From: Patescibacteria group bacterium
GTDB lineage: Bacteria > Patescibacteriota > Minisyncoccia > UBA6257 > HR35
Length of the DNA stretch: 32,000 nucleotides
Direction: 5' to 3'
NCBI GenBank assembly: GCA_023480925.1
Contig: JAMCWY010000003.1
Location: forward strand, 1 to 32,000
Each line of letters starts with the position of its first letter. Positions within the stretch are counted from its first letter, which is position 1. The position numbers and the translations under genes are program-made. This document shows positions 3,315 through 32,000 of the stretch, one piece after another. A model generated the notes under the pieces. It did not search any database. It worked only from the letters and a program-made list of their open reading frames with translations, and was not told where the DNA came from.

Positions 3315-3323
3315 TGGTATAAT
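3315..3323 (+). promoter_or_regulatory. Candidate extended -10 promoter (TGgTATAAT) for ftsEX
   Basis: tggtataat lies 12 nt upstream of the ftsE ATG. Sequence match only. Confidence 0.4.
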
Positions 3324-4019: not shown

Positions 4020-4924
4020 TGAGATATTTTTTAAAAGTTTGGTCGGAGGGTTGGCGAATGGCTCTCAATCGGCGACTTTTGAGTTTGGTCGGCGTCTTGA
4101 CGATTTTTTTGATCAGCCTTTTTCTTTGGAGCGGCGTTTTTATGTTTTATTTTACCCAAGAAGGAATTAAATATTTTGAAAGCAAACTTGATTTTTCCGT
4201 TTACTTTAAAGCCAGCGCCCAACAAAGCGATATTCGAAGTCTTCAATCGATTCTTGAAAACTTTCCCAATGTCGATCAGGTTGTTTACGTGACCAAGGCC
4301 GAGGCTCTGACTAATTTTAAAAGCGAAGTCAGCGGCAATCAGGTTATCTCGAAAGCTTTGACCGAACTTAACACTAACCCCCTCGTCGACTATCTCATTG
4401 TTCGGGCCAAAGATCCAACCGCTTACGCTAAAGTCGCGAGTTATTTGGATCAGTCACCCTACCGGTCCCTGATCGAGTTCGTCACTTACGCCGAGAATCA
4501 GCAAATTATTAACAAGTTTATCGGCGTTTCCAATAATCTCAGGCTGTTTATCCTGGTTTTCCTTGTTTTGGTTATGATTTTTGGCAGTTTGATTATTTTT
4601 AATTCAACCTTGGTCGCTATTTTCGCTCAGCGGGAAGAAGTTGAGGTTTTAAGACTAATCGGCGCGACCAATTGGTTTATCCGTCTGCCATTTTTAATTT
4701 TTACTTTTTTAATTTCGATCTTTGGTTATCTGATCAGTTTGTTTTTGGTTGCTTTAATTACGATGAAGACGAGCGGATTTATATCGATTATCTTGCCTCA
4801 AGCCAATTTTAGCCAGTTTATTTTTCATTACTTTTGGCCTTTGAATTTTGGCCTCTTTGGTTTTATTTTGGCGATTAACTTATTTTCAACATTCGTCGCC
4901 CTTCAGAAACATTTGAATATTTAA
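4019..4924 (+). CDS. ftsX: FtsX-like cell-division permease
   Basis: It shares a TAATG overlap with ftsE. The topology is one N-terminal TM, a ~130-aa extracytoplasmic domain, then three C-terminal TM helices. Confidence 0.75.
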   Translation: MRYFLKVWSEGWRMALNRRLLSLVGVLTIFLISLFLWSGVFMFYFTQEGIKYFESKLDFSVYFKASAQQSDIRSLQSILENFPNVDQVVYVTKAEALTNFKSEVSGNQVISKALTELNTNPLVDYLIVRAKDPTAYAKVASYLDQSPYRSLIEFVTYAENQQIINKFIGVSNNLRLFILVFLVLVMIFGSLIIFNSTLVAIFAQREEVEVLRLIGATNWFIRLPFLIFTFLISIFGYLISLFLVALITMKTSGFISIILPQANFSQFIFHYFWPLNFGLFGFILAINLFSTFVALQKHLNI

Positions 4925-4992: not shown

Positions 4993-6483
4993 ATGCTTGA
5001 AGTTTTTTTTCAAAATTCAAGTCCAAAGCAGACCGTAGTTAAAAACACCTTTTGGCTTTTAACCGAAACGGTCGTGAATAAATTGTTGAAATTTTTTCTG
5101 ATTATTTGGGCGGCGCGGATTTTAGGCGCGGCTGGTTATGGCGCGTTTTCTTTCGCTCTATCTTTCGCCGCGACGATTTTTATATTCGCCGATCTCGGCA
5201 TTGGTTCGATCTTGATCCGGGAATACCAAAAAGAACAAAATCGAATTCTTGTTTCAACCGCTCTCTGGTTAAAACTCATTTTGTCTTTAATCTCAATCTT
5301 GGTCGGCCTTGTTGTCCTGTTTTTTTTCAAAAGCGTTCAAGCTCGGCCGATTATTTTAATTTTGCTTTTGATGGATTTCATTCTTAATTTCCGCGATGGC
5401 TTCATCGCTTTTGCTCGAGCGAGGCAGAAGATGGAAGAGGAGGCCTTTTTAATCGTTCTTGAAAACATTGTTGTTTTTTTGATCGGCTTTCTCGTTTTGT
5501 TTTTCTGGCCGAGCGCTTTGAATTTTAGTTTGGCTTATTTCGCCGGCGCTTTGATTTCACTTTTGGCCACGTTTATTGTTTTTCAAAAACGGGCGAAGAT
5601 ATTTAGCCGAAATTTTGATCCGGTCTTGGCCAAAAAAATTTTGCGTTTGGCTTGGCCGTTTACTTTCGGCGGTCTCATCGCCGTCACCCTTGGTTCAATC
5701 GACATCTTGATGCTTGGCTTGCTTAAAACCGCTGCCGCGGTTGGAATTTATTCCGCCGCGATTAAAATTGTTTATGTTCTAAGCGTTATCCCTGGGATTA
5801 TTGTCGGCGCGATTTTTCCTTTAATCAGCCGTTTTCATCAAGACGAAAAAGTTCTTTTGAAAATTATTCGGGAAGGGAACAGCGCTCTTTTGCTTTTAGC
5901 TTTGCCTTTGACCCTAGGCGGTTTTTTGATCGGCGGTCGCTTGATTCATTTTTTTCTCGGTTCTCAATATCTTGCCAGTGTTTTAATTTTTAAGGTTTTG
6001 ATTTTTCTCGTGCCGCTGATTTTTCTCGTTTCGCTTTGGGACAGTTTTTTGTTGGCGGTCAACCTTCAGATCAAAGATTTTGAATATACGGCCGTCGCCG
6101 CGGCCCTGAACGTTATCTTGAACTTTATCTTGATTCCAGAGTTTTTCGGTCTCGGTGCGGCCGTGGCGATTTTAATCAGTCAGTTTGTCAATTTTGTTTT
6201 AACTTATCGGTTGACGCGGGCGTACTTCAAAAAAACATTTGAACAATCGGGTCAAACTCAAGTTTACACCGGTCTGATCGATTTTAAGTTGTTGGCGAAA
6301 TATATTTTCGCGACTTTGGTTATGACCGTCTTTGTTTTTGCCCTGACCTTAACCAGAATCTCGTCTTTCGTCATTATATTTTTGGCGATTTTTATTTACC
6401 TCGGCGCGCTTTTATTGACTCGGGAGGAGTTTTCTCTGAGTTTTGTTTCTTTGGTTAAACGGAAGTTTTTCTCGATTCGGTGA
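4993..6483 (+). CDS. MOP-superfamily (Wzx-type) polysaccharide/oligosaccharide flippase
   Basis: A 496-aa polytopic membrane protein with roughly 12-14 hydrophobic helices. The N-terminal NTFWLL...KLLKFFLIIWAARILG pattern is typical of this family. Confidence 0.75.
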   Translation: MLEVFFQNSSPKQTVVKNTFWLLTETVVNKLLKFFLIIWAARILGAAGYGAFSFALSFAATIFIFADLGIGSILIREYQKEQNRILVSTALWLKLILSLISILVGLVVLFFFKSVQARPIILILLLMDFILNFRDGFIAFARARQKMEEEAFLIVLENIVVFLIGFLVLFFWPSALNFSLAYFAGALISLLATFIVFQKRAKIFSRNFDPVLAKKILRLAWPFTFGGLIAVTLGSIDILMLGLLKTAAAVGIYSAAIKIVYVLSVIPGIIVGAIFPLISRFHQDEKVLLKIIREGNSALLLLALPLTLGGFLIGGRLIHFFLGSQYLASVLIFKVLIFLVPLIFLVSLWDSFLLAVNLQIKDFEYTAVAAALNVILNFILIPEFFGLGAAVAILISQFVNFVLTYRLTRAYFKKTFEQSGQTQVYTGLIDFKLLAKYIFATLVMTVFVFALTLTRISSFVIIFLAIFIYLGALLLTREEFSLSFVSLVKRKFFSIR

Positions 6484-6852
6484 AAATAAAGTTGTTGGAG
6501 ATAATAAAATTGATCGGATAAACGATTAAGATCGCAATGATGAAACTAAAGAGATAGTTAATTGAAAATTGGTTAATGAAGACAAAAATCAAGCCGGTGT
6601 ATATCATTAAACCAAAAAATTGAGCCAAGCCGAAAAGAATAAATCTTTTCGCGACCCGATCATCTTTGGTTTTAAAGGTTAGCCAAGCCTGAAAGGTAAA
6701 ATTAAACCAATAAGATAACCACCGATCGAACCAAAAAGATAGTTGAGGTTAAATTGGTCGATCAGAAAATAGGCTGAGCTAATATTTGAGATAAAAGCCA
6801 AACCGCCGCCCAAACTATACCAAAGAAACCATTTTAATTTTTTTCGTTTCAT
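6455..6852 (-). pseudogene. GtrA-family membrane protein gene broken by a 1-nt frameshift
   Basis: The minus-strand ATG at 6852 gives MKRKKLKWFLWYSLGGGLAFISNISSAYFLIDQFNLNYLFGSIGGYLIGLILPFRLG, then a stop at 6679-6681. Another frame continues QAWLTFKTKDDRVAKRFILFGLAQFFGLMIYTGLIFVFINQFSINYLFSFIIAILIVYPINFIISNNFIFTES to a stop at 6455-6457. The span is 398 nt, one short of a multiple of three. Confidence 0.6.
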
Positions 6853-6876
6853 TGCCAATCCTTGGATTGATTCTTT

Positions 6877-10852: not shown

Positions 10853-11986
10853 ATGAGAATAGGTATTGATGCGAGAGTCTTGGAAAGAAAGATGACCGGT
10901 GTCGGCCGCTATGTTTTGAACTTAATTAAGAATATTTCTTCCTGCGACGAGACGAACGAATACTTTATTTTTTCTTACGCGCCTCTGAAGGATTTTGTCG
11001 CTTCGAATCCGAACATTAAAAATATTCCGACTTTAAATTTTTTGCCTCGCGGCGTCCTTCAGAAATTAATATCGCCTTTCTGGATGAATTTGATCCTGCC
11101 AACATTTCTCCGTCGCGAAAAAATAGATCTGTTTTTTTCTCCAAATCACGTCTTGCCTTTTTTGAGGGGGAAAACAAAAAACGTGGCAGTGATTCTTGAT
11201 TTGTTTAATATTATCAATAAGAAGTTTCATTCTTTTTTGTATCGTTTATACGTCAGCTTTACCTTATTTAATTCCGTCAAGAAAAGCGATGCGATTATTA
11301 CAATTTCCGAAGCGTCCAAAAAAGATATAATAAAATTTTTAAAAGTTCAAGGAGACAAGGTAAAGGTTATTTATCTCGCGGCTGATGATAAATTCAAACC
11401 AAGAAACATAAGCGATGAGGAAAAACGTAAATTAAGAGCAAGATACGACTTGTCCGAAGAATTTATTTTATATGTCGGCGTGATAGAAGAAAGGAAAAAC
11501 ATGGCCGGAATTTTAAAAGTTGCCGATGAACTTTTGAAAAGAGGCCTAAAAACGCCGATTGTCTTGATTGGCCGTGTGGGCTATGGCGGCAAGAAATACA
11601 TAGAAAACGTAAAAAATCGCGAGAATGTTTTTTACAGAGGATTTGTCGAAGAAGCCGACTTGCCCTATATTTATAACATCTCGTCTTTATTTTTTTTCCC
11701 ATCGCTTTATGAGGGATTTGGTCTTCCGCCCCTTGAGGCGATGCGATCAGGTGTGCCCGTGGTCGCGTCTAATGCCTCGTCGCTTCAGGAAGTGATAGGC
11801 GATGGGGGGATTATGCTTTCGCCCGATGATTATCCCGGTTTTACCGACGTCATAGAAAGGATTATGAAAGATGATAATCTACGTTTAGAGCTTATACAAA
11901 AAGGGCTAGCGCGAGCGAGTAAGTTTAGTTTCGAGAGAATGGCTTGCGAAACGGTCGAGACATTAAACAGAGTTAAACAACTATGA
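10853..11986 (+). CDS. GT4-family glycosyltransferase (mannosyltransferase-like)
   Basis: FPSLYEGFGLPPLEAMRSGVPVVASN is the canonical E-x7-E motif. ATG 10853 lies 2 nt after the upstream stop; the ORF track uses TTG 10841. Confidence 0.85.
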   Translation: MRIGIDARVLERKMTGVGRYVLNLIKNISSCDETNEYFIFSYAPLKDFVASNPNIKNIPTLNFLPRGVLQKLISPFWMNLILPTFLRREKIDLFFSPNHVLPFLRGKTKNVAVILDLFNIINKKFHSFLYRLYVSFTLFNSVKKSDAIITISEASKKDIIKFLKVQGDKVKVIYLAADDKFKPRNISDEEKRKLRARYDLSEEFILYVGVIEERKNMAGILKVADELLKRGLKTPIVLIGRVGYGGKKYIENVKNRENVFYRGFVEEADLPYIYNISSLFFFPSLYEGFGLPPLEAMRSGVPVVASNASSLQEVIGDGGIMLSPDDYPGFTDVIERIMKDDNLRLELIQKGLARASKFSFERMACETVETLNRVKQL

Positions 11987-12936: not shown

Positions 12937-13919
12937 TTATTACGCGAACTCCTTTTAGAATAACTTTGGGCGGCGGCGGCACGGATTTGCCGTCTTATTA
13001 CTCAAAATACGGCGGATTTATTTTTTCCGCCGGAATCGATAAGTATATGTTTGTTGACGTGAATAGACCGGTCGTCGACGATTTGATCCGTTTGAAATAT
13101 TCAAAGTCGGAGACGGTTGAAAATGTTGAAGAAATTCAGCATAGCATAGCGAAAGAAATTTTAAAATTTATCGGCATTGACAAATGTATAGAAATAAGTT
13201 CGGTCGCCGACATACCGGCCGGGACCGGTTTGGGTTCATCGAGTTGTTATGCTGTGGGACTTTTGCACGCTCTGCATGCTTTAAAAAGAGATTACGTGCC
13301 GTTAGATAAATTAGCGGATGAGGATTTTAAAATCGAAGCGGAAATTTTAGGCAGACCAATAGGGAAGCAAGATCCTTATATGGCCGCCATCGGCGGATTA
13401 ACTGTTTTGGATATAGACCAAGAAGGAGGAGTTAAAGCAAGGAAAGCTAATATTTCGTACGAGGCGGCCAACGCTCTCAATGGTAATATGCTTGTGTTTT
13501 TTACCGGTTTGACCAGGAGCGCGGACGAGATATTAGTTGAGCAAAAGAAAGCGATTAATGAAGAAAAAAAGGATGTTCTTGAAAGTATGCATTATATTAA
13601 AGAACTCGGTTACAAAATATTAGAAGCGGTTGAATCGGAAAATATTGCCGACGTGGGCAAGCTATTTGATACCCACTGGCAATATAAGAAAAAAATTTCA
13701 AACAAGATGTCAAATGAAAGATTTGATAAAATTTACAGAATCGCTAAAGAAAACGGCGCCTTGGGCGGAAAAATTTCCGGTGCGGGCGGGGGAGGATTTT
13801 TTACTTTTTACGTGGAAAATAACCATAAAAAGTTTAGAGAAGTGATGAAAGATTTAAACCTGCGAGAAATGAGATATCGTTTTGACTTTGAAGGTTCGAA
13901 GGTTTTAATTGATTTTTAA
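12933..13919 (+). CDS. hddA: GHMP-family sugar kinase, probable D-glycero-alpha-D-manno-heptose 7-phosphate kinase
   Basis: MIITRTPFRITLGGGGTDLPSYY N-terminus. PAGTGLGSSS GHMP motif II. GAGGGGF motif III. It clusters with gmhA, gmhB and a nucleotidyltransferase. Substrate is inferred from context. Confidence 0.7.
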   Translation: MIITRTPFRITLGGGGTDLPSYYSKYGGFIFSAGIDKYMFVDVNRPVVDDLIRLKYSKSETVENVEEIQHSIAKEILKFIGIDKCIEISSVADIPAGTGLGSSSCYAVGLLHALHALKRDYVPLDKLADEDFKIEAEILGRPIGKQDPYMAAIGGLTVLDIDQEGGVKARKANISYEAANALNGNMLVFFTGLTRSADEILVEQKKAINEEKKDVLESMHYIKELGYKILEAVESENIADVGKLFDTHWQYKKKISNKMSNERFDKIYRIAKENGALGGKISGAGGGGFFTFYVENNHKKFREVMKDLNLREMRYRFDFEGSKVLIDF

Positions 13920-19314: not shown

Positions 19315-19378
19315 TTTGTGTTAAAATAATTTAAATGTCGTTAGAGCGGGGTAAAATTCGATTGGGAGAATGAAAAAA
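19315..19378 (+). repeat. Right copy of the ~64-nt direct repeat (the functional infA promoter/leader)
   Basis: tttgtgttaaaataatttaaatgtcgttagagcggggtaaaattcgattgggagaatgaaaaaa aligns with 7181-7244. Confidence 0.7.
19319..19327 (+). promoter_or_regulatory. Candidate extended -10 promoter (TGtTAAAAT) upstream of infA
   Basis: tgttaaaat, followed 7 nt later by an ATG at 19335. Sequence match only. Confidence 0.4.
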
Positions 19379-19576
19379 GAGCTGGTTGAAGGCCGGGTGC
19401 TTGAGAGTTTGCCCGCCGCTTCTTTCCGCGTTGAGTTAAGCGATGGTCGGGAAATTTTGGCTTATTTGGCCGGCCGGATGCGTTTGCATTATATCAAGAT
19501 TGTCGCCGGGGACGCGGTTACGATCGAACTTTCCCCCTACGATCAAAATCGGGGCAGGATTATTAAACGAAAATAA
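19370..19576 (+). CDS. infA: Translation initiation factor IF-1
   Basis: [32 protein letters not shown]...[21 protein letters not shown] matches the IF-1 S1-fold consensus along its whole length. Confidence 0.95.
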
Positions 19577-19629
19577 TTAGTCGTTTGAACTTTTGAAATT
19601 AATTTAAAATTTTATTGAAATATAAGGCA

Positions 19630-19743
19630 ATGAAAGTTTCCGCCGTGGTTAAAAAAAGATGTTTAAAGTGCAAGGTCGTCCGTCGAAAAAAACGTTTGTA
19701 CGTGATTTGCTCGAACCCTCGGCATAAACAAAGACAAGGTTAA
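19630..19743 (+). CDS. rpmJ: 50S ribosomal protein L36 (absent from the ORF track because it is short)
   Basis: Hand translation gives [37 protein letters not shown], 37 aa, with the C-x2-C...C...H zinc motif. It sits in the canonical position after infA. Confidence 0.9.
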
Positions 19744-22139: not shown

Positions 22140-22145
22140 ATTATA
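22140..22145 (-). promoter_or_regulatory. Candidate -10 box (TATAAT) 7 nt upstream of the Nudix ATG
   Basis: The minus strand reads tattataat-aagctta-ATG. Sequence match only. Confidence 0.35.
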
Positions 22146-22246
22146 ATAGATATAGGCTTGAAGAATTAAATCAAACCACTTATGTTTTTTGACCATTCTG
22201 ATTCGAGGAAGATTTTTTATATAATTCTTTAATTAGTTTAATTAAA

Positions 22247-23680: not shown

Positions 23681-23689
23681 TGATATAAT
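23681..23689 (+). promoter_or_regulatory. Candidate extended -10 promoter (TGaTATAAT) of the atp operon
   Basis: tgatataat ends 8 nt before the atpB ATG at 23698. Confidence 0.45.
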
Positions 23690-23697
23690 AAAAAGTT

Positions 23698-24402
23698 ATG
23701 GCAGTGGAGTTTAAACCGGATATCATTTTAACAATTTTTAACTGGCCGATTTCAAATTCGTTGTTGGCGAGTTTTTTGTCGCTTGGTTTGATTTTCCTGA
23801 CATTGTTTATTTTTAAAAAAAGATTAAAAGAAGTGCCAGGTCGATTTCAGGCGGCGATTGAAATTATTTACGAAGGTTTTTTTGATTTTTACAACGATAT
23901 TCTCGAATCAAGCAAACAAACAAAAGTTTTCTTTTCTTTTTTGTTCGCTTTTTTCCTTTACGTCATTGTAAGCAACTGGATTGGTCTGTTGCCCGGCATT
24001 GGCAGTCTGGTTGTTCATTGGGGCGGTCAGACCGTGCCGCTTTTTCGTTCGACTTATTCGGATTTGAATATGACCCTTGCCTTAGCTTTGATTTCCGTTA
24101 TCGGCGTCAATATAATCGCTATTTTTTATCTGCGCCGCTTTTATTTCAAAAAGTGGTTGACAGCATTGGCGCCGTTTGAAATTTTTTCGGAATTTGCTAA
24201 AATAATATCTTTCTCGTTCAGATTATTCGGGAATATTTTTGCTGGCGATGTTCTTTTAATCGTAATTTTTTCGTTGAGCGGCTATATTTTACCGGTGCCG
24301 TTTATAGGTTTGGAAATTTTTGTCGGTTTTATCCAGGCTTTAATTTTTACCGCCTTAACCGCAATTTTCTTAAAAGTCGCATTAATTCAAACATCGCATT
24401 AA
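23698..24402 (+). CDS. atpB: F0F1 ATP synthase subunit a
   Basis: A polytopic protein with FSFRLFGNIFAGD, which carries the conserved Arg of subunit a. It is the first gene of the atp cluster. Confidence 0.9.
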   Translation: MAVEFKPDIILTIFNWPISNSLLASFLSLGLIFLTLFIFKKRLKEVPGRFQAAIEIIYEGFFDFYNDILESSKQTKVFFSFLFAFFLYVIVSNWIGLLPGIGSLVVHWGGQTVPLFRSTYSDLNMTLALALISVIGVNIIAIFYLRRFYFKKWLTALAPFEIFSEFAKIISFSFRLFGNIFAGDVLLIVIFSLSGYILPVPFIGLEIFVGFIQALIFTALTAIFLKVALIQTSH

Positions 24403-24405
24403 TCA

Positions 24406-24648
24406 ATGCCGCAATCTTTGGATTTAAGTTTTCTTAATAATCTTTTTGCCGGTTTGACGATCGCGATCGGCGTCGCTTTGCCCGCTTGGGCGATTGGCAA
24501 GATTGGCAGCTCAGCCGTCGAAGGCATCAGCCGTAATCCCGAAGCGACGCCAAAAATCCAAACGGCGATGATCTTAGCTATCGCTTTCGCCGAGGCTGTC
24601 GCTATTTATGTTTTGGTTATCACCCTTTTGATTAAATTCGTCAAATAA
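24406..24648 (+). CDS. atpE: F0F1 ATP synthase subunit c
   Basis: An 80-aa helical hairpin with loop RNPE and the ion-binding carboxylate in AFAEAVAIY. There is no Ser/Thr after the Glu, which suggests H+ coupling. Confidence 0.9.
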   Translation: MPQSLDLSFLNNLFAGLTIAIGVALPAWAIGKIGSSAVEGISRNPEATPKIQTAMILAIAFAEAVAIYVLVITLLIKFVK

Positions 24649-24706: not shown

Positions 24707-25210
24707 ATGGATTTGCTAACGAAAATCGGGATTGAACCGAAATTACTACTGGCTCAAGTTGTCAATTTTGGCATCGTTGTTTTTATCATTTATTATTTTT
24801 TGCATAAACCTTTGTCTAATTTGATTAAGACGAGGCGGGAAAAAATCGAATCGGGTCTGAAAAAAGAAAAAGAAGCGGAAGAGCTGATGGCGAAAGTTCA
24901 ATCTTTGCGTCAGGATATTTTGACCGCGGCGGCAAAGGAAAAAGAAGAAATAATTTTGGCGACAAGGGCAAAGTTGGTTGAACTTGAAGAGGCCGAGCGC
25001 GAAAAATTGGTCCGATTCGAGTTGAACGAGAGAAAAAAAATCGAGGCGGCTTTGGCTCAGACGGAAAAAGAATTAGCTAAAGAAATCGAGGCTAAATTTC
25101 CGGCTTTATTTTTAAATTTAAGCTCGAAAATTTTTCCGGCGAAAGATTTGAACGAAAAATTTATTAAAGCGATGCTTGAACAAACTGAGCCGAACGGTCA
25201 AAACGAATAA
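24707..25210 (+). CDS. atpF: F0F1 ATP synthase subunit b
   Basis: One N-terminal TM followed by a long charged helix (E/K/A-rich). Operon position supports the call. Confidence 0.75.
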   Translation: MDLLTKIGIEPKLLLAQVVNFGIVVFIIYYFLHKPLSNLIKTRREKIESGLKKEKEAEELMAKVQSLRQDILTAAAKEKEEIILATRAKLVELEEAEREKLVRFELNERKKIEAALAQTEKELAKEIEAKFPALFLNLSSKIFPAKDLNEKFIKAMLEQTEPNGQNE

Positions 25211-25590
25211 TGCCGAATATTTGGACGAAGATTTTGGTTGACAAATTTGAACGAGATAAAGATTTGAAGGTCGTTGATGGTTTGGTTGAGCTTTTAAAAC
25301 GGCGTGGCCGGTTGAAACAATTGAAAGAAATTTTGGCTGACTTAAAATTCATTCAGGACCAAACCGACCGCGTTGGTTCAGCTAAATTAGTCTTAGCTCA
25401 ACCAATTGAAGAAAAGACGTTGGCTTTGATAAAAACGAAGTTGGCGCGGCGGTTGGGTTGGTGCGATCTCAATCCAAGAATTAGAGTTGATAAGAATCTT
25501 GTCGCCGGCGGTTTCTTATTGACTCGGGCCAAGTTTGTCGATTTTAGTTTTCGCGGTTTAATTTTGAGAGGTTTAGTTAAAGAGCAGTGA
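25210..25590 (+). CDS. atpH: F0F1 ATP synthase subunit delta (short, 126 aa)
   Basis: The C-terminal VDKNLVAGGFLLTRAKFVDFSFRGLILRGL resembles the OSCP/delta consensus (liGG..i..g....D.S). It lies between atpF and atpA. It looks N-terminally shorter than the usual ~180 aa. Confidence 0.65.
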   Translation: MPNIWTKILVDKFERDKDLKVVDGLVELLKRRGRLKQLKEILADLKFIQDQTDRVGSAKLVLAQPIEEKTLALIKTKLARRLGWCDLNPRIRVDKNLVAGGFLLTRAKFVDFSFRGLILRGLVKEQ

Positions 25591-25597
25591 TAAAAAA

Positions 25598-27142
25598 ATG
25601 GAAGATTTAAAATTTTTGATTCAAAAACTTGAAAAAGAATTATTGAGAATCGAGGCCGGCGCTGAGATAGTATCGGTCGGGACGGTTTTGCGGACAGGCG
25701 ACGGCGTTGTTTGGATTGATGGTTTGGCCCAGACGAAACTAAACGAGATTCTTCTGGTTCGGCCAAGCCAGACGAGTGGAACGAAAGAAATCAGCGTGCC
25801 CGTTTTGGCTTTGAATTTGGAAGAAGAGTTGATCGGCGCGGTTGCCTTGGCTGATTCCGATCTGATTAAAGAAGGCGATATGGTCATAAGGACGGAAACG
25901 GTTATCCAGGCGCCGGTTGGCCCGTCTTTAATCGGCCGAGTCGTCAATCCTTTGGGTCAGCCGCTTGATGGCTTGGGCGAAATTAAAACCGAAACATTCT
26001 ATCCCCTAGAACGAGAAGCGCCGGGCGTGATTGAGCGGGAGCCAGTGCGAAGACCGCTTCAAACCGGAATCAAGGCGATTGATGGATTGATTCCGATTGG
26101 CCGGGGTCAGCGAGAGTTAATTTTGGGCGATCGTCAAATTGGCAAGACCGCGATCGCTTTAGATGTAATTTTGAATCAAAAAGACGAAAAGAAAGATCGG
26201 CCGATTTGCGTTTATGTCGGCGTTGGCCAAAAACTTTCGAAGATTAAGCGAATGTATGAAATTTTAAAAAAGGCCGGCGCGCTTGACTATACTATCATGG
26301 TCGTGGCGAGCGCTTCCGATCCAGCCGCCTTGATTTATCTTTCCGTTTACAGCGGTTGTTCGATTGGAGAATATTTTCGGGATAACGGTCAGGACGCGGT
26401 TGTGATTTACGACGATTTGACTAAGCACGCTTGGGCTTGGCGGGAATTGAGTTTGCTTTTAAAACGACCGGTTGGCCGCGAGGCTTATCCGGGCGATATT
26501 TTTTACACGCACGCGCGCTTATTGGAACGAGCGGCGAAATTGAAAGAAGGCGGATCGTTGACCGCCTTGCCGATTTGCGAAACTCAACTCGGCGATATTT
26601 CTTCTTATATTCCAACAAATTTAATTTCAATCACCGATGGTCAAATTTATCTTGAGACCGATTTATTCAATAAAGGCTTTCGGCCGGCGATCAGTATCGG
26701 TTTGAGCGTTTCGCGCGTCGGTTCACAGGCTCAGACCAAGTTAATGAAAAAAGTCGCTGGCCGATTGAAGCTTGATCTGGCTCAATTTCGCGAATTGGAA
26801 GCGTTCGCTCAGGTCACGAGTGATTTGGCCGAGGCGAGCAGGAAAAAATTGGAACGAGGTCGAGTTTTGACCGAAATTTTAAAACAAGAGAATCTTCAAC
26901 CGCTTAGTTTTGAAAAAATTGCGGTTTTGTTTTTCGCCGCGAACGAGGGTTATCTTGACGGGTTCAGCTCGGCCGAAATTTTTTATTTCGAGAATAAACT
27001 TTTGGCGGATTTAAATTTGGACCAGGCGGATTTGGCCACGGCCTTAAAAACCAAAGCGGATATTGACGATACTTTGGTTGAAAAATTAAATCAGTATTTA
27101 AAAAATTTTGTCCAATCTTTTCGCCAGAACCGGAGTAATTAA
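25598..27142 (+). CDS. atpA: F0F1 ATP synthase subunit alpha
   Basis: GDRQIGKTAIALD Walker A, VIYDDLTKHA, and PGREAYPGDIFYTHARLLERA-type motifs. Confidence 0.95.
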   Translation: MEDLKFLIQKLEKELLRIEAGAEIVSVGTVLRTGDGVVWIDGLAQTKLNEILLVRPSQTSGTKEISVPVLALNLEEELIGAVALADSDLIKEGDMVIRTETVIQAPVGPSLIGRVVNPLGQPLDGLGEIKTETFYPLEREAPGVIEREPVRRPLQTGIKAIDGLIPIGRGQRELILGDRQIGKTAIALDVILNQKDEKKDRPICVYVGVGQKLSKIKRMYEILKKAGALDYTIMVVASASDPAALIYLSVYSGCSIGEYFRDNGQDAVVIYDDLTKHAWAWRELSLLLKRPVGREAYPGDIFYTHARLLERAAKLKEGGSLTALPICETQLGDISSYIPTNLISITDGQIYLETDLFNKGFRPAISIGLSVSRVGSQAQTKLMKKVAGRLKLDLAQFRELEAFAQVTSDLAEASRKKLERGRVLTEILKQENLQPLSFEKIAVLFFAANEGYLDGFSSAEIFYFENKLLADLNLDQADLATALKTKADIDDTLVEKLNQYLKNFVQSFRQNRSN

Positions 27143-28464: not shown

Positions 28465-29907
<1,443 letters not shown>

Positions 29908-29965
29908 AACTAATCAGTCGGACTAACCGAAATTTAGTTTTAGGGCGGCATAATAAAACGCCGGG

Positions 29966-29990
29966 GCGAATTTTAAATTCGCGGATTTTT
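29966..29990 (+). terminator. Candidate terminator after atpD
   Basis: gcgaatt-tta-aattcgc is a perfect 7-bp palindrome at 29966-29982, followed by ggattttt. A second 9-bp stem, ctaaaacta at 29904-29912 with tagttttag at 29935-29943, lies just upstream. Confidence 0.45.
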
Positions 29991-29998
29991 GGAAATAA

Positions 29999-31738
29999 TT
30001 AAATCAATCGGTAACTAATTTCTTTGATGACTTTGATATTTTTTAGTTTGATCAAAATTTTTTCCGTTTTTTCTTTATTATCGAAATTGATCTTAATTTT
30101 TATTTGGGCGAAATGACCGTTTGGGTTTGAGTGGATTTCTTTGATGTTGGTTTTGGTTTGGGCGATGATGTCGGAAATGTTTTTAATCAAGTTAATTTTG
30201 TCTTCGGCCAGGATTTTTATCTCAGCCAGCCGTTCGCGTTTGAATGGATCGTCTTGGCGAAGCTTGTTTCTGATTTTCTTTTTAGCTCGGTCGGTTTTGA
30301 TAAAACGAATCCAGGATTCCGATGGCCGCCGCGTTTTTTGAGTCAAAATTTCAACAATATCGCCGGATTGGAGAATTTGATCGAGATTGACGATTTTGTC
30401 GTTGACCCGGGCGCCGACGCAGTGGTTGCCGATTTCGGTGTGAACGGCGTAAGCGAAATCGATTGGCGTTGACCCAGCCGGCAGATCGAAAACTTCGCCC
30501 TTGGGCGTGATCGTAAAAATTCTGTCTTTAAAAAAATCAATTTTAAGCGATTGGAGAAAATCATCTTGGCTGTCAAATTTATTTTGCCAATTTTTCAATT
30601 GTTCAATCCAATTTAACTCTTTCCGGTCGGCAAAAATCGTTTTGGCTTTTAAATAATTTTTGCTTTGTTTCGCTTGGCTATAAAACCAGTAAGCGGCAAT
30701 ACCGTTTTCATTTTCTTCGTGCATCTCGAGCGTTCGAATTTGAAATTCGGTTGGTTTGTTTTCTTCGCAGATGACGGTCGTGTGAATGCTGCGATAGCCG
30801 TTTGGTTTGGGCAGGGCGATGTAGTCTTTAATCCGGCCGGGCAGAGGCGGCCAAAGTTTGTGGATAAAACCAAGAACGGCATAACACTCTTCGACTGTCT
30901 GAACGATAATTCGAACCGCGACTAAATCGTAAACTTGGCTAAGGTCCATATCGTAACGGAGAATTTTTTTGTAAAGACTGGCGTAACGTTTGGCTCGAGT
31001 ATCGATTCGGATTGGTTTGATTTTATTCTTTTCCAATTCCGTCCCGATTATCTTTTTGACATTTTCAAGGTATCTTTCTCGTTCTTGAAATTTTTCTTTG
31101 ACATTTTCTTTCAACCATTTGGACTCGGTTGGGTGAAGATAGGGGAAGGCGAGATCGTCGAGTTCGCCGGCCAGGTTACTCATACCCAGACGGTAGGCGA
31201 GAGGCGAATAAATTTCGTTTGTTTCAAGAGCGATTCGTTTTTGTTTGTTTGGCGCCAGAGCATTGAGGGTTTTGAGATTGTGGAGCCGGTCGGCCAGCTT
31301 AATGAAGACGACGCGAATGTCTTCGCTCATGGCCAAAATCATTTTTTTTAAAGTTTCGATCTGAGCTTGGTTGCCGCGGTATTTGATTCGGCTGATCTTA
31401 GTCACGCCATCGACAAGAAAAGCGATCTCATCGCCGAATTCTTTTTTAATCCGTTCCAAAGAAATGTCGGTGTCTTCGACGACGTCGTGTAAGAGCGCGG
31501 CGGCGGCAGTGGCCAAGTCTAACTGCCACTGGCTAATCTTTAAAGCGGTCTGGAAGGCGTGGTTGAAATAAGGTTCGCCCGATTTTCTTTTTTGGCCACG
31601 GTGGGCTTCTTGGCTGAAGGTGAAAGCTTTTTTAATTAATTCCAATTCCGTTTCATTTAATTGGCAATATTTCTTGATCGCGCCAATCAATTCTTGAAAC
31701 TGGTTTGAATTTATTTTTCCATCTATTTTGGCCGTCAT
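29999..31738 (-). CDS. rel: Bifunctional RelA/SpoT homologue, (p)ppGpp synthetase/hydrolase, compact 579-aa form
   Basis: HD hydrolase motifs (HRGQKRKSGEPYFNH, LLHDVVEDT). Synthetase motifs (RAKRYASLYKK, DLVAVRII, GYRSIHTTV, EFQIRTLEMH). TGS domain (TPKGEVFDLPAGSTPIDFAYAVHTEIG). C-terminal ACT/RRM-like segment. Confidence 0.9.
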   Translation of the reverse strand: MTAKIDGKINSNQFQELIGAIKKYCQLNETELELIKKAFTFSQEAHRGQKRKSGEPYFNHAFQTALKISQWQLDLATAAAALLHDVVEDTDISLERIKKEFGDEIAFLVDGVTKISRIKYRGNQAQIETLKKMILAMSEDIRVVFIKLADRLHNLKTLNALAPNKQKRIALETNEIYSPLAYRLGMSNLAGELDDLAFPYLHPTESKWLKENVKEKFQERERYLENVKKIIGTELEKNKIKPIRIDTRAKRYASLYKKILRYDMDLSQVYDLVAVRIIVQTVEECYAVLGFIHKLWPPLPGRIKDYIALPKPNGYRSIHTTVICEENKPTEFQIRTLEMHEENENGIAAYWFYSQAKQSKNYLKAKTIFADRKELNWIEQLKNWQNKFDSQDDFLQSLKIDFFKDRIFTITPKGEVFDLPAGSTPIDFAYAVHTEIGNHCVGARVNDKIVNLDQILQSGDIVEILTQKTRRPSESWIRFIKTDRAKKKIRNKLRQDDPFKRERLAEIKILAEDKINLIKNISDIIAQTKTNIKEIHSNPNGHFAQIKIKINFDNKEKTEKILIKLKNIKVIKEISYRLI

Positions 31739-31744
31739 TGGTTT

Positions 31745-31750
31745 ATTTTA
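31745..31750 (-). promoter_or_regulatory. Candidate -10 box (TAAAAT) 6 nt upstream of the rel ATG
   Basis: The minus strand reads taaaat-aaacca-ATG. Sequence match only, in an AT-rich spacer. Confidence 0.3.
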
Positions 31751-31759
31751 TGATTATTA

Positions 31760-31765
31760 TATAAT
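31760..31765 (+). promoter_or_regulatory. Candidate -10 box (TATAAT) just upstream of atpC
   Basis: tataat ends 4 nt before ATG 31770 and 7 nt before the second ATG at 31773. Confidence 0.35.
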
Positions 31766-31769
31766 TAAA

Positions 31770-32000
31770 ATGATGGTAAAGTTTCATTTTAAATTTGTAA
31801 CCGAAGCGGGAGTTGAGCGTGATCAAGAAATTGACGGTTTAAATTTGATGACTGAGGCCGGCGAAATCACGGTTTTGGCTCATCATCGGCCCTTGATCGC
31901 GGTTGCCCAAAAAGGAAAAATAAAGATTTTAAATCAGAACCAAGCCGAGTCTTTCGAATTGAAGGCGGATTCGATTCTTGAGGTCAGGCCGGACGAAGTT
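31770..32000 (+). CDS. atpC: F0F1 ATP synthase subunit epsilon (3'-truncated by the window edge; not in the ORF track)
   Basis: Hand translation gives MMVKFHFKFVTEAGVERDQEIDGLNLMTEAGEITVLAHHRPLIAVAQKGKIKILNQNQAESFELKADSILEVRPDEV. This aligns with E. coli epsilon at GE.G.....H.PL and ILEV.P. It is in frame to the last base of the window. Confidence 0.85.
   Translation, partial: MMVKFHFKFVTEAGVERDQEIDGLNLMTEAGEITVLAHHRPLIAVAQKGKIKILNQNQAESFELKADSILEVRPDEV

Follow-up and report, generated by a model that had tools for sequence, protein, structure and literature searches.

An antisense rel gene separates atpD from atpC in the ATP synthase operon of a Patescibacteria lineage

An inverted rel gene within the atp operon

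We analyzed a 32,000-nucleotide (nt) stretch of DNA, hereafter the window (positions 1 to 32,000 of contig JAMCWY010000003.1, GenBank assembly GCA_023480925.1), from a member of the Patescibacteria, or candidate phyla radiation (CPR), in which the genes for the beta and epsilon subunits of the F1Fo ATP synthase, atpD and atpC, are separated by an inverted gene, rel, encoding a (p)ppGpp synthetase/hydrolase of the RelA/SpoT homolog (RSH) family. Open reading frame (ORF) listing, translation and Pfam searches yield the order atpD (+), a 91-nt structured spacer, rel (-), a 31-nt AT-rich spacer and atpC (+). The genes from atpB to atpD form a co-directional atp operon on the plus strand, within which rel is inverted, and atpC, rather than lying directly downstream of atpD, is found 1,862 nt away from it, a distance that includes the antisense rel. 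These coordinates and distances match exactly those given in an initial annotation of the window, which had described a full RSH gene antisense between atpD and atpC and had placed the start of atpC at 31770, noting its clear alignment to epsilon subunits. The RSH gene is indeed complete and retains intact catalytic motifs, and the visible portion of atpC matches the Pfam family of epsilon N-terminal domains (Table 1).

The same gene order, serS - atpBEFHA - mazG - atpGD - rel (inverted) - atpC - orf60 - fba - tuf - S10 operon, is present in all the assemblies harboring this layout. These comprise at least seven independent assemblies (L001-L003, L084-L087) and fall into two variants, with Rel proteins 100% and 98% identical to that of the window and approximately 3% divergence at the DNA level (97% nucleotide identity). 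Among these assemblies, three encode a Rel identical to that of the window (NCBI GCA_023381135.1 and two Logan runs), and at least four carry the 98%-identical Rel, including on contigs of 226 kb and 343 kb. The assemblies sharing these junctions stem from different samples, sequencing runs and assemblers (NCBI, ENA and Logan). Misassembly at either junction, a possibility to be checked according to the initial annotation, was rejected because both junctions recur across these assemblies. A chimeric contig joining rel to the atp genes, an idea that stems only from the metagenome-type assembly of the window and for which we found nothing else in favor, is confronted by long contigs, three independent sources and a diverged variant, and we assign it a negligible probability. 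Furthermore, comparison of the two variants with the Nei-Gojobori method yields dN/dS ratios of 0.067 (rel) and 0.064 (atpC), revealing purifying selection on both genes, which are therefore functional in the split layout.

Table 1. Coordinates of the atp genes, rel and the flanking spacers in the window, with the evidence for each feature.
Feature	Position	Strand	Evidence and remarks
atpB	23698-24402	+	ORF, Pfam
atpE	24406-24648	+	ORF, Pfam
atpF	24707-25210	+	ORF, Pfam
atpH (short; delta/OSCP)	25210-25590	+	ORF, Pfam
atpA	25598-27142	+	ORF, Pfam
mazG-like nucleotide pyrophosphohydrolase gene, 109 amino acids	27154-27483	+	Pfam MazG 2.8e-11
atpG (gamma), 318 amino acids	27488-28444	+	Pfam ATP-synt 1.4e-62
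atpD (beta), 477 amino acids	28474-29907	+	Pfam ATP-synt_ab 4e-74; relatives 53-69% identical
Convergent spacer, 91 nt	29908-29998	.	Sequence, folding; feature from 29904 if the first hairpin is counted
rel, compact long RSH, 579 amino acids	29999-31738	-	HD_4 1.6e-48, RelA_SpoT 1.5e-35, TGS 8.5e-23, ACT_4 8.6e-9
Divergent spacer, 31 nt, G+C 4/31	31739-31769	.	Sequence
Palindrome ATTATATAAT, 10 bp, two opposite -10 hexamers	31756-31765	.	TATAAT scan
atpC (epsilon)	31770 to window end (32000), stop 24 nt further	+	ATP-synt_DE_N 3.8e-9 on 77 visible codons

Several minor features accompany these genes. The delta (OSCP) product of atpH is only 126 amino acids long and matches just the C-terminal two-thirds of its Pfam model. 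Between atpC and fba, just past the end of the window, lies a conserved 60-amino acid ORF, orf60 (4138-4320, minus strand, in the identical contig L002), whose product has one predicted C-terminal membrane helix and no family match. Elsewhere in the window, the small genes infA and rpmJ sit in apparent intergenic gaps (19370-19576 and 19615-19743), and two adjoining short ORFs on the minus strand (6455-6628 and 6679-6858), hydrophobic membrane-protein fragments by appearance, may constitute one disrupted gene.

Context of rel, atpC and mazG in relatives and features of their products

To place this layout in context, we assembled two sets of loci. A Rel alignment scan with one genome per GTDB species provided 80 Patescibacteria loci centered on rel (L004-L083), with flanks of up to 10 kb, and a metagenome scan with AtpD provided 80 loci centered on atpD, 75 of them with enough flank for assessing the position of atpC. 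No atp genes were detected by tblastn near rel in any of the 80 rel-centered loci. The gene topA is present near rel in 64 of them, in 62 cases directly upstream and co-oriented, while dprA is found in 54 and parB, convergent and downstream of rel, in 56. The closest relative of the window Rel (65% identical) also harbors this dprA-topA-rel-parB block, which, judging from its gene order across relatives, is the ancestral home of rel. Given the dominance of this context, the converse scenario of an atp operon inserted between serS and rel, which lie near each other in some relatives, was dropped. In the closest Rel relatives (L088, 13565-16117; also L089 and L090), a ParA/Soj-like gene beside parB carries an intein with a LAGLIDADG endonuclease domain.

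The adjacency of atpD and atpC, which the initial annotation had proposed to survey in related genomes, is close to invariant: in iterated profile searches, atpC was located on the same strand and at most 331 nt downstream of atpD in 72 of the 75 atpD-centered loci, and no gene was found between the two in any surveyed locus of this set. The closest operons, with AtpD proteins 66-69% identical to that of the window, are plain atpBEFHAGDC operons without mazG, and in two of the closest relatives (L096 and L098) atpD and atpC overlap by 4 nt. Three close relatives present an element of 175-300 nt between atpD and atpC (L092, 11348-11652; L094 and L099, approximately 11345-11530), in which many CCGAAT (or CCGGAT) units are followed by their complements to give a long imperfect hairpin, so insertions other than rel have affected this junction as well. 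The layout of the window is absent from all 80 rel-centered and all 80 atpD-centered loci, in agreement with its initial description as unusual, and this comparison indicates that it is derived and known so far only at about the species level.

The gene between atpA and atpG, separated from them by 11 nt and 4 nt, encodes a member of the MazG family, scoring 44 bits against PF03819 (cut-off 22) and presenting the acidic EExxE...ExxD motifs as GETGEV and ELEKELGD, with a weak match in the PDB to YpjD (2gta). In none of the 80 atpD-centered loci is mazG located between atpA and atpG. Jackhmmer searches on all surveyed loci detected no linkage of mazG to rel or to atp genes in relatives, and identified mazG only in the lineage of the window and as a single copy in locus L108 (16033-16527), where it is unlinked, 4.6 kb from atpC.

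The Rel protein aligns to Bacillus subtilis Rel (6yxa) with an E-value of 1.2e-140. Its hydrolase motifs LHDVVEDT and DRLHN are identical to those of B. subtilis Rel, in an HD domain detected at 1.6e-48, and the synthetase motifs YDLVAVR, RIKD, NGYRS and EFQIRT are likewise conserved. Because both sets of catalytic motifs are conserved, Rel is predicted to be bifunctional. The C-terminus contains a TGS domain (residues 408-466) and an ACT domain (residues 504-574) separated by approximately 38 residues, with no Pfam match over the AH/RIS region; the C-terminal regulatory region is therefore only partly present, as in all Patescibacteria homologs, with no zinc-finger domain and little of the helical domain left. 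Nearly all of the 120 homologs listed by the search, from Patescibacteria often labeled Wolfebacteria, are similarly compact, at approximately 560-590 amino acids, and a short Rel is therefore the norm of the group. The domains that have gone from these Patescibacteria Rel proteins are those that touch the ribosome in RelA/Rel, while TGS and ACT are kept.

The complete epsilon, read from the identical contig L002, comprises 84 amino acids (MMVKF...TIEP), or 83 from the second ATG. It matches ATP-synt_DE_N and, in jackhmmer searches, the epsilon subunits of relatives (approximately 1e-30), identifying the N-terminal beta-sandwich, and its alignment to solved epsilon chains covers residues 3-79 of these, where the protein also stops. 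In E. coli and Bacillus, the two C-terminal helices of epsilon inhibit ATP hydrolysis, and in Bacillus they bind ATP. The window protein stops at residue 84 and lacks this two-helix inhibitory/ATP-binding domain. The initial annotation had stressed the role of epsilon as the regulatory and inhibitory subunit; this argument fails here because the C-terminal helices are missing, the protein being a beta-sandwich alone, as in the closest relatives with a normal atpDC arrangement. Epsilon length is 83-88 amino acids in the ten closest atp operons. Of 72 loci surveyed, 29 encode an epsilon of 78-110 amino acids that consists only of the beta-sandwich, and every one of the window's closest relatives is among these 29. 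The short epsilon is a clade trait and no consequence of the rearrangement. In L092, a second, partial atpC (13065-13382, plus strand; residues ~19-84) fused to a Cys-rich N-terminus lies 1.2 kb downstream of the intact gene.

Candidate promoters and terminators around rel and atpC

The convergent spacer between atpD and rel folds into three hairpins (29904-29943, 29944-29962 and 29966-29982), confirming the presence of hairpins in the initial annotation, but not their number, which had been put at two. Folding z-scores against shuffled sequences are -4.44 and -4.57 for the plus and minus strands, respectively. On the plus strand, the hairpin at 29966-29982 precedes a TTTTT tract (29986-29990), a hairpin and U-run combination that is flagged as terminator-like by a consensus scan. 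On the minus strand, a long hairpin overlapping the atpD stop codon is followed by the U-rich run UUAUCUUUU. The two variants differ at three positions in the 91 nt of this spacer, one of them in a loop. The spacer probably terminates transcription in both directions and, since a hairpin and a T-run follow atpD, atpC very probably needs its own promoter, in line with the initial annotation.

The divergent spacer between rel and atpC contains four G and no C, and is identical in the two variants over its 31 nt. We confirmed the TAAAAT and TATAAT boxes previously assigned to rel and atpC, respectively. The palindrome ATTATATAAT additionally provides a perfect TATAAT on each strand, with the two hexamers overlapping by 2 bp and consequently sharing base pairs, as in bidirectional promoters, a class defined by divergent start sites located 7-29 bp apart. 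The TATAAT facing atpC (31760-31765) ends 4 nt before the first ATG (31770) and 7 nt before a second ATG (31773) that aligns with the start of epsilon in relatives, whereas the TATAAT facing rel (31761 down to 31756) is 17 nt from the rel ATG. We consider promoters for rel and atpC in this spacer plausible.

Perfect TATAAT hexamers are located 4-21 nt upstream of seven start codons in the window, most of them after an intergenic gap and including those of atpB, serS and a NUDIX gene (hexamers at 3318, 15787, 22145 on the minus strand, 22220, 23684, 31760 and 31761 on the minus strand). This enrichment is modest (7 observed versus 2.8 expected in shuffled sequences, P = 0.02). Upstream of atpB, an extended -10-like sequence, TGaTATAAT (23681-23689), ends 8 nt before the ATG. 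The other divergent pair in the window, formed by the NUDIX hydrolase gene and serS, also presents overlapping opposite -10 hexamers (ATTATAAT, 22140-22147). The proximity of TATAAT to start codons suggests leaderless mRNAs or mRNAs with very short leaders. No Shine-Dalgarno sequence was found in any of the 34 genes of the window, and the 3' end (~1630-1646) of the 16S rRNA (53-1646) reads ...GGAGCAUAUCUAUU, without the CCUCC anti-Shine-Dalgarno; a leaderless atpC mRNA would fit this genome, given the lack of both elements. A scan of the spacers for RNA elements with Rfam matched only the 16S rRNA, and no tRNA genes were found. Neither a 23S rRNA gene nor a tRNA gene follows the 16S rRNA gene in the window, so the rRNA genes are unlinked.

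Origin and significance of the split operon

The explanation we favor, and regard as likely, is a lineage-specific relocation of rel, in one poorly sampled CPR lineage (Paceibacteria/Wolfebacteria-like), that has been tolerated and is probably near-neutral, rather than a dedicated device for the control of ATP synthase by the alarmone. Under this explanation, rel would have left the dprA-topA-rel-parB block and landed, inverted, in the atpD-atpC junction, which in some of the closest relatives is a 4-nt overlap. The transcript of atpB-E-F-H-A-mazG-G-D would now end at the hairpin and T-run at 29966-29990, and rel would be transcribed from the 31-bp AT-rich spacer up to the long hairpin over the atpD stop codon. 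Back to back with rel, atpC would now lead a transcription unit of its own, atpC-orf60-fba..., with transcription starting from the TATAAT that precedes its ATG by 4-7 nt and generating a leaderless or nearly leaderless mRNA. Because the two -10 boxes overlap, one RNA polymerase bound at them would exclude the other. The rearrangement may have been tolerated because the epsilon of this clade is a small structural beta-sandwich of which each complex needs one copy.

A number of observations weigh against this explanation. No intermediate relatives are available, the next Rel after the two variants being only 65% identical, and purely neutral change does not explain the coincidence that two nucleotide-metabolism genes, mazG and rel, were inserted in the same operon. 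The promoters and terminators invoked are consensus matches only, with poor -35 regions (TTGGTT for atpC, and no convincing candidate for the perfect rel box), and 5.5% of shuffled versions of the 31-nt spacer contain TATAAT on both strands. The last figure also weakens the initial proposal of a control region shared by rel and atpC, since the -10 pair is not clearly beyond chance.

With regard to the origin of rel, the nearest Rel (65% identical) and the nearest AtpD (68-69%) share a clade and a source metagenome (Ga0078972), rel shows no compositional anomaly, with no break in G+C content or strand skew relative to its neighbors, and no direct or inverted repeats were found flanking the gene. 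Together, these observations favor movement within the genome, by either a single insertion or two nested inversions, over horizontal transfer. The presence of a single inverted gene in an otherwise co-directional operon could also be explained by horizontal acquisition of rel on a mobile element inserted into the atp operon, but the window ORF listing contains no integrase or transposase gene, the clade and degree of identity of the nearest Rel homologs parallel those of AtpD, and insertion of a mobile element was rejected on the lack of flanking repeats and of a compositional break, making this origin very improbable.

In an adaptive scenario, the palindromic bidirectional promoter would link rel expression to the supply of epsilon, which would in turn govern the assembly of coupled F1Fo, through polymerase competition or co-activation, and would constitute with mazG an energy and nucleotide-stress module. 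The overlapping opposite perfect -10 boxes in a spacer identical between variants and the insertion of a nucleotide pyrophosphohydrolase gene, mazG, in the same operon are consistent with this scenario, as is the fact that relA and mazG are neighbors in the relA-mazE-mazF-mazG locus of E. coli. Competition at bidirectional promoters has also been documented; in E. coli, strong activation of one direction is required before polymerase competition has an effect on the partner promoter (NAR 2026, PMC12825309). We nonetheless consider adaptive coupling unlikely, given that the layout is confined to one species-level lineage, with no linkage of rel to atp genes, or of mazG to atp genes or rel, in the 160 related loci, that this epsilon has no inhibitory domain and that the -10 boxes are within chance for the base composition of the spacer. 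The absence of changes in the 31 nt is weak evidence for coupling, because a flanking 77-nt spacer is unchanged too. The narrow distribution of the layout and the location of rel in a conserved block elsewhere hence provide no comparative sign of a selected link between rel and epsilon. That the two lineage-specific insertions, mazG on the sense strand and rel on the antisense strand with a palindromic promoter in common with atpC, form a selected circuit, in which the choice made by the polymerase at one symmetrical -10 element would set the levels of alarmone enzyme and epsilon reciprocally, and through epsilon the assembly of ATP synthase, is in our view decidedly improbable. Alternatively, atpC might lack a promoter of its own and be expressed by atp transcripts running antisense across rel, so that high atp transcription would both provide epsilon and keep rel silent through transcriptional interference. 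The hairpin after atpD is modest, with a 7-bp stem, three G-C pairs and GGA before the T-run, and the evidence for the atpC promoter is not significant, but read-through would have to traverse three consecutive hairpins with strong folding z-scores and generate 1.74 kb of RNA antisense to a gene under strong purifying selection, and it would leave aside a perfect TATAAT whose distance from the ATG of atpC is of the leaderless type, as in other window genes following intergenic gaps. We therefore regard read-through as doubtful.

The atpD-rel-atpC layout is real and rare and breaks an otherwise almost invariant junction, and a special mechanism behind it has little support. If it is a mere rearrangement, as we favor, the near-universal adjacency of the beta and epsilon genes and their translational coupling would be dispensable once epsilon is a structural domain only, and the locus would provide a clean natural case of a gene gaining a promoter after an operon break. 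If the shared -10 element couples rel and atpC, it would represent a compact example of promoter competition joining stress signaling to the assembly of the energy machinery, and a selected circuit would tie energy conversion to nucleotide-stress signaling in an organism whose regulatory repertoire is minimal. The survey also documents a strongly conserved dprA-topA-rel-parB block in the Patescibacteria, and the absence of Shine-Dalgarno pairing together with -10 boxes abutting start codons offers a clue to gene expression in this CPR lineage. Our literature searches turned up no description of an atpD/atpC split, of a short epsilon in the Patescibacteria or of a genetic link between ppGpp and ATP synthase. 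All the parts of the locus (an atp operon, Rel, MazG, a bidirectional promoter and terminators) are ordinary; it is their combination that is new to atp operon organization.

With respect to the canonical F1Fo operon, atpBEFHAGDC, the window maintains the genes, their order and strand from atpB to atpD, and the next atp gene after atpD remains atpC, but mazG lies between atpA and atpG, and 1.86 kb with the antisense rel between atpD and atpC. Split atp gene sets are known in cyanobacteria and chloroplasts, with separate atpB-atpE and atpI/H/G/F/D/A/C clusters, and in alpha-proteobacteria, with separate Fo and F1 operons. As predicted for the window, their subunits derive from more than one transcription unit, but the genes for beta and epsilon remain adjacent in these systems, whereas in the window they do not. 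The E. coli relA-mazEFG locus resembles the window in that a MazG-family pyrophosphohydrolase is encoded within a few kb of an RSH gene. In the window, however, rel and mazG are on opposite strands with atpG and atpD between them, the MazG protein is a 109-amino acid, single-domain, YpjD-like protein, and the linkage is not conserved in relatives. Like the bifunctional long RSH proteins (the Rel of B. subtilis, Streptococcus equisimilis and Thermus thermophilus), the window Rel presents HD and synthetase catalytic motifs, an RxKD-type motif and TGS and ACT/RRM domains, but it is approximately 160 amino acids shorter and lacks the zinc finger and most of the helical domain. Finally, bidirectional bacterial promoters with overlapping -10 elements are known, with start sites mostly 18 bp and also 23 bp apart (Warman et al., bioRxiv 10.1101/2020.01.31.928960). 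The window shares with them a symmetrical -10 element common to two divergent genes and a predicted distance between start sites of approximately 23 bp, a reported spacing class, but it differs from them in that its start sites are predictions only, in a group with uncharacterized promoter rules, and in a hexamer overlap of 2 bp, compared with the 5 bp inferred for the 18-bp class.

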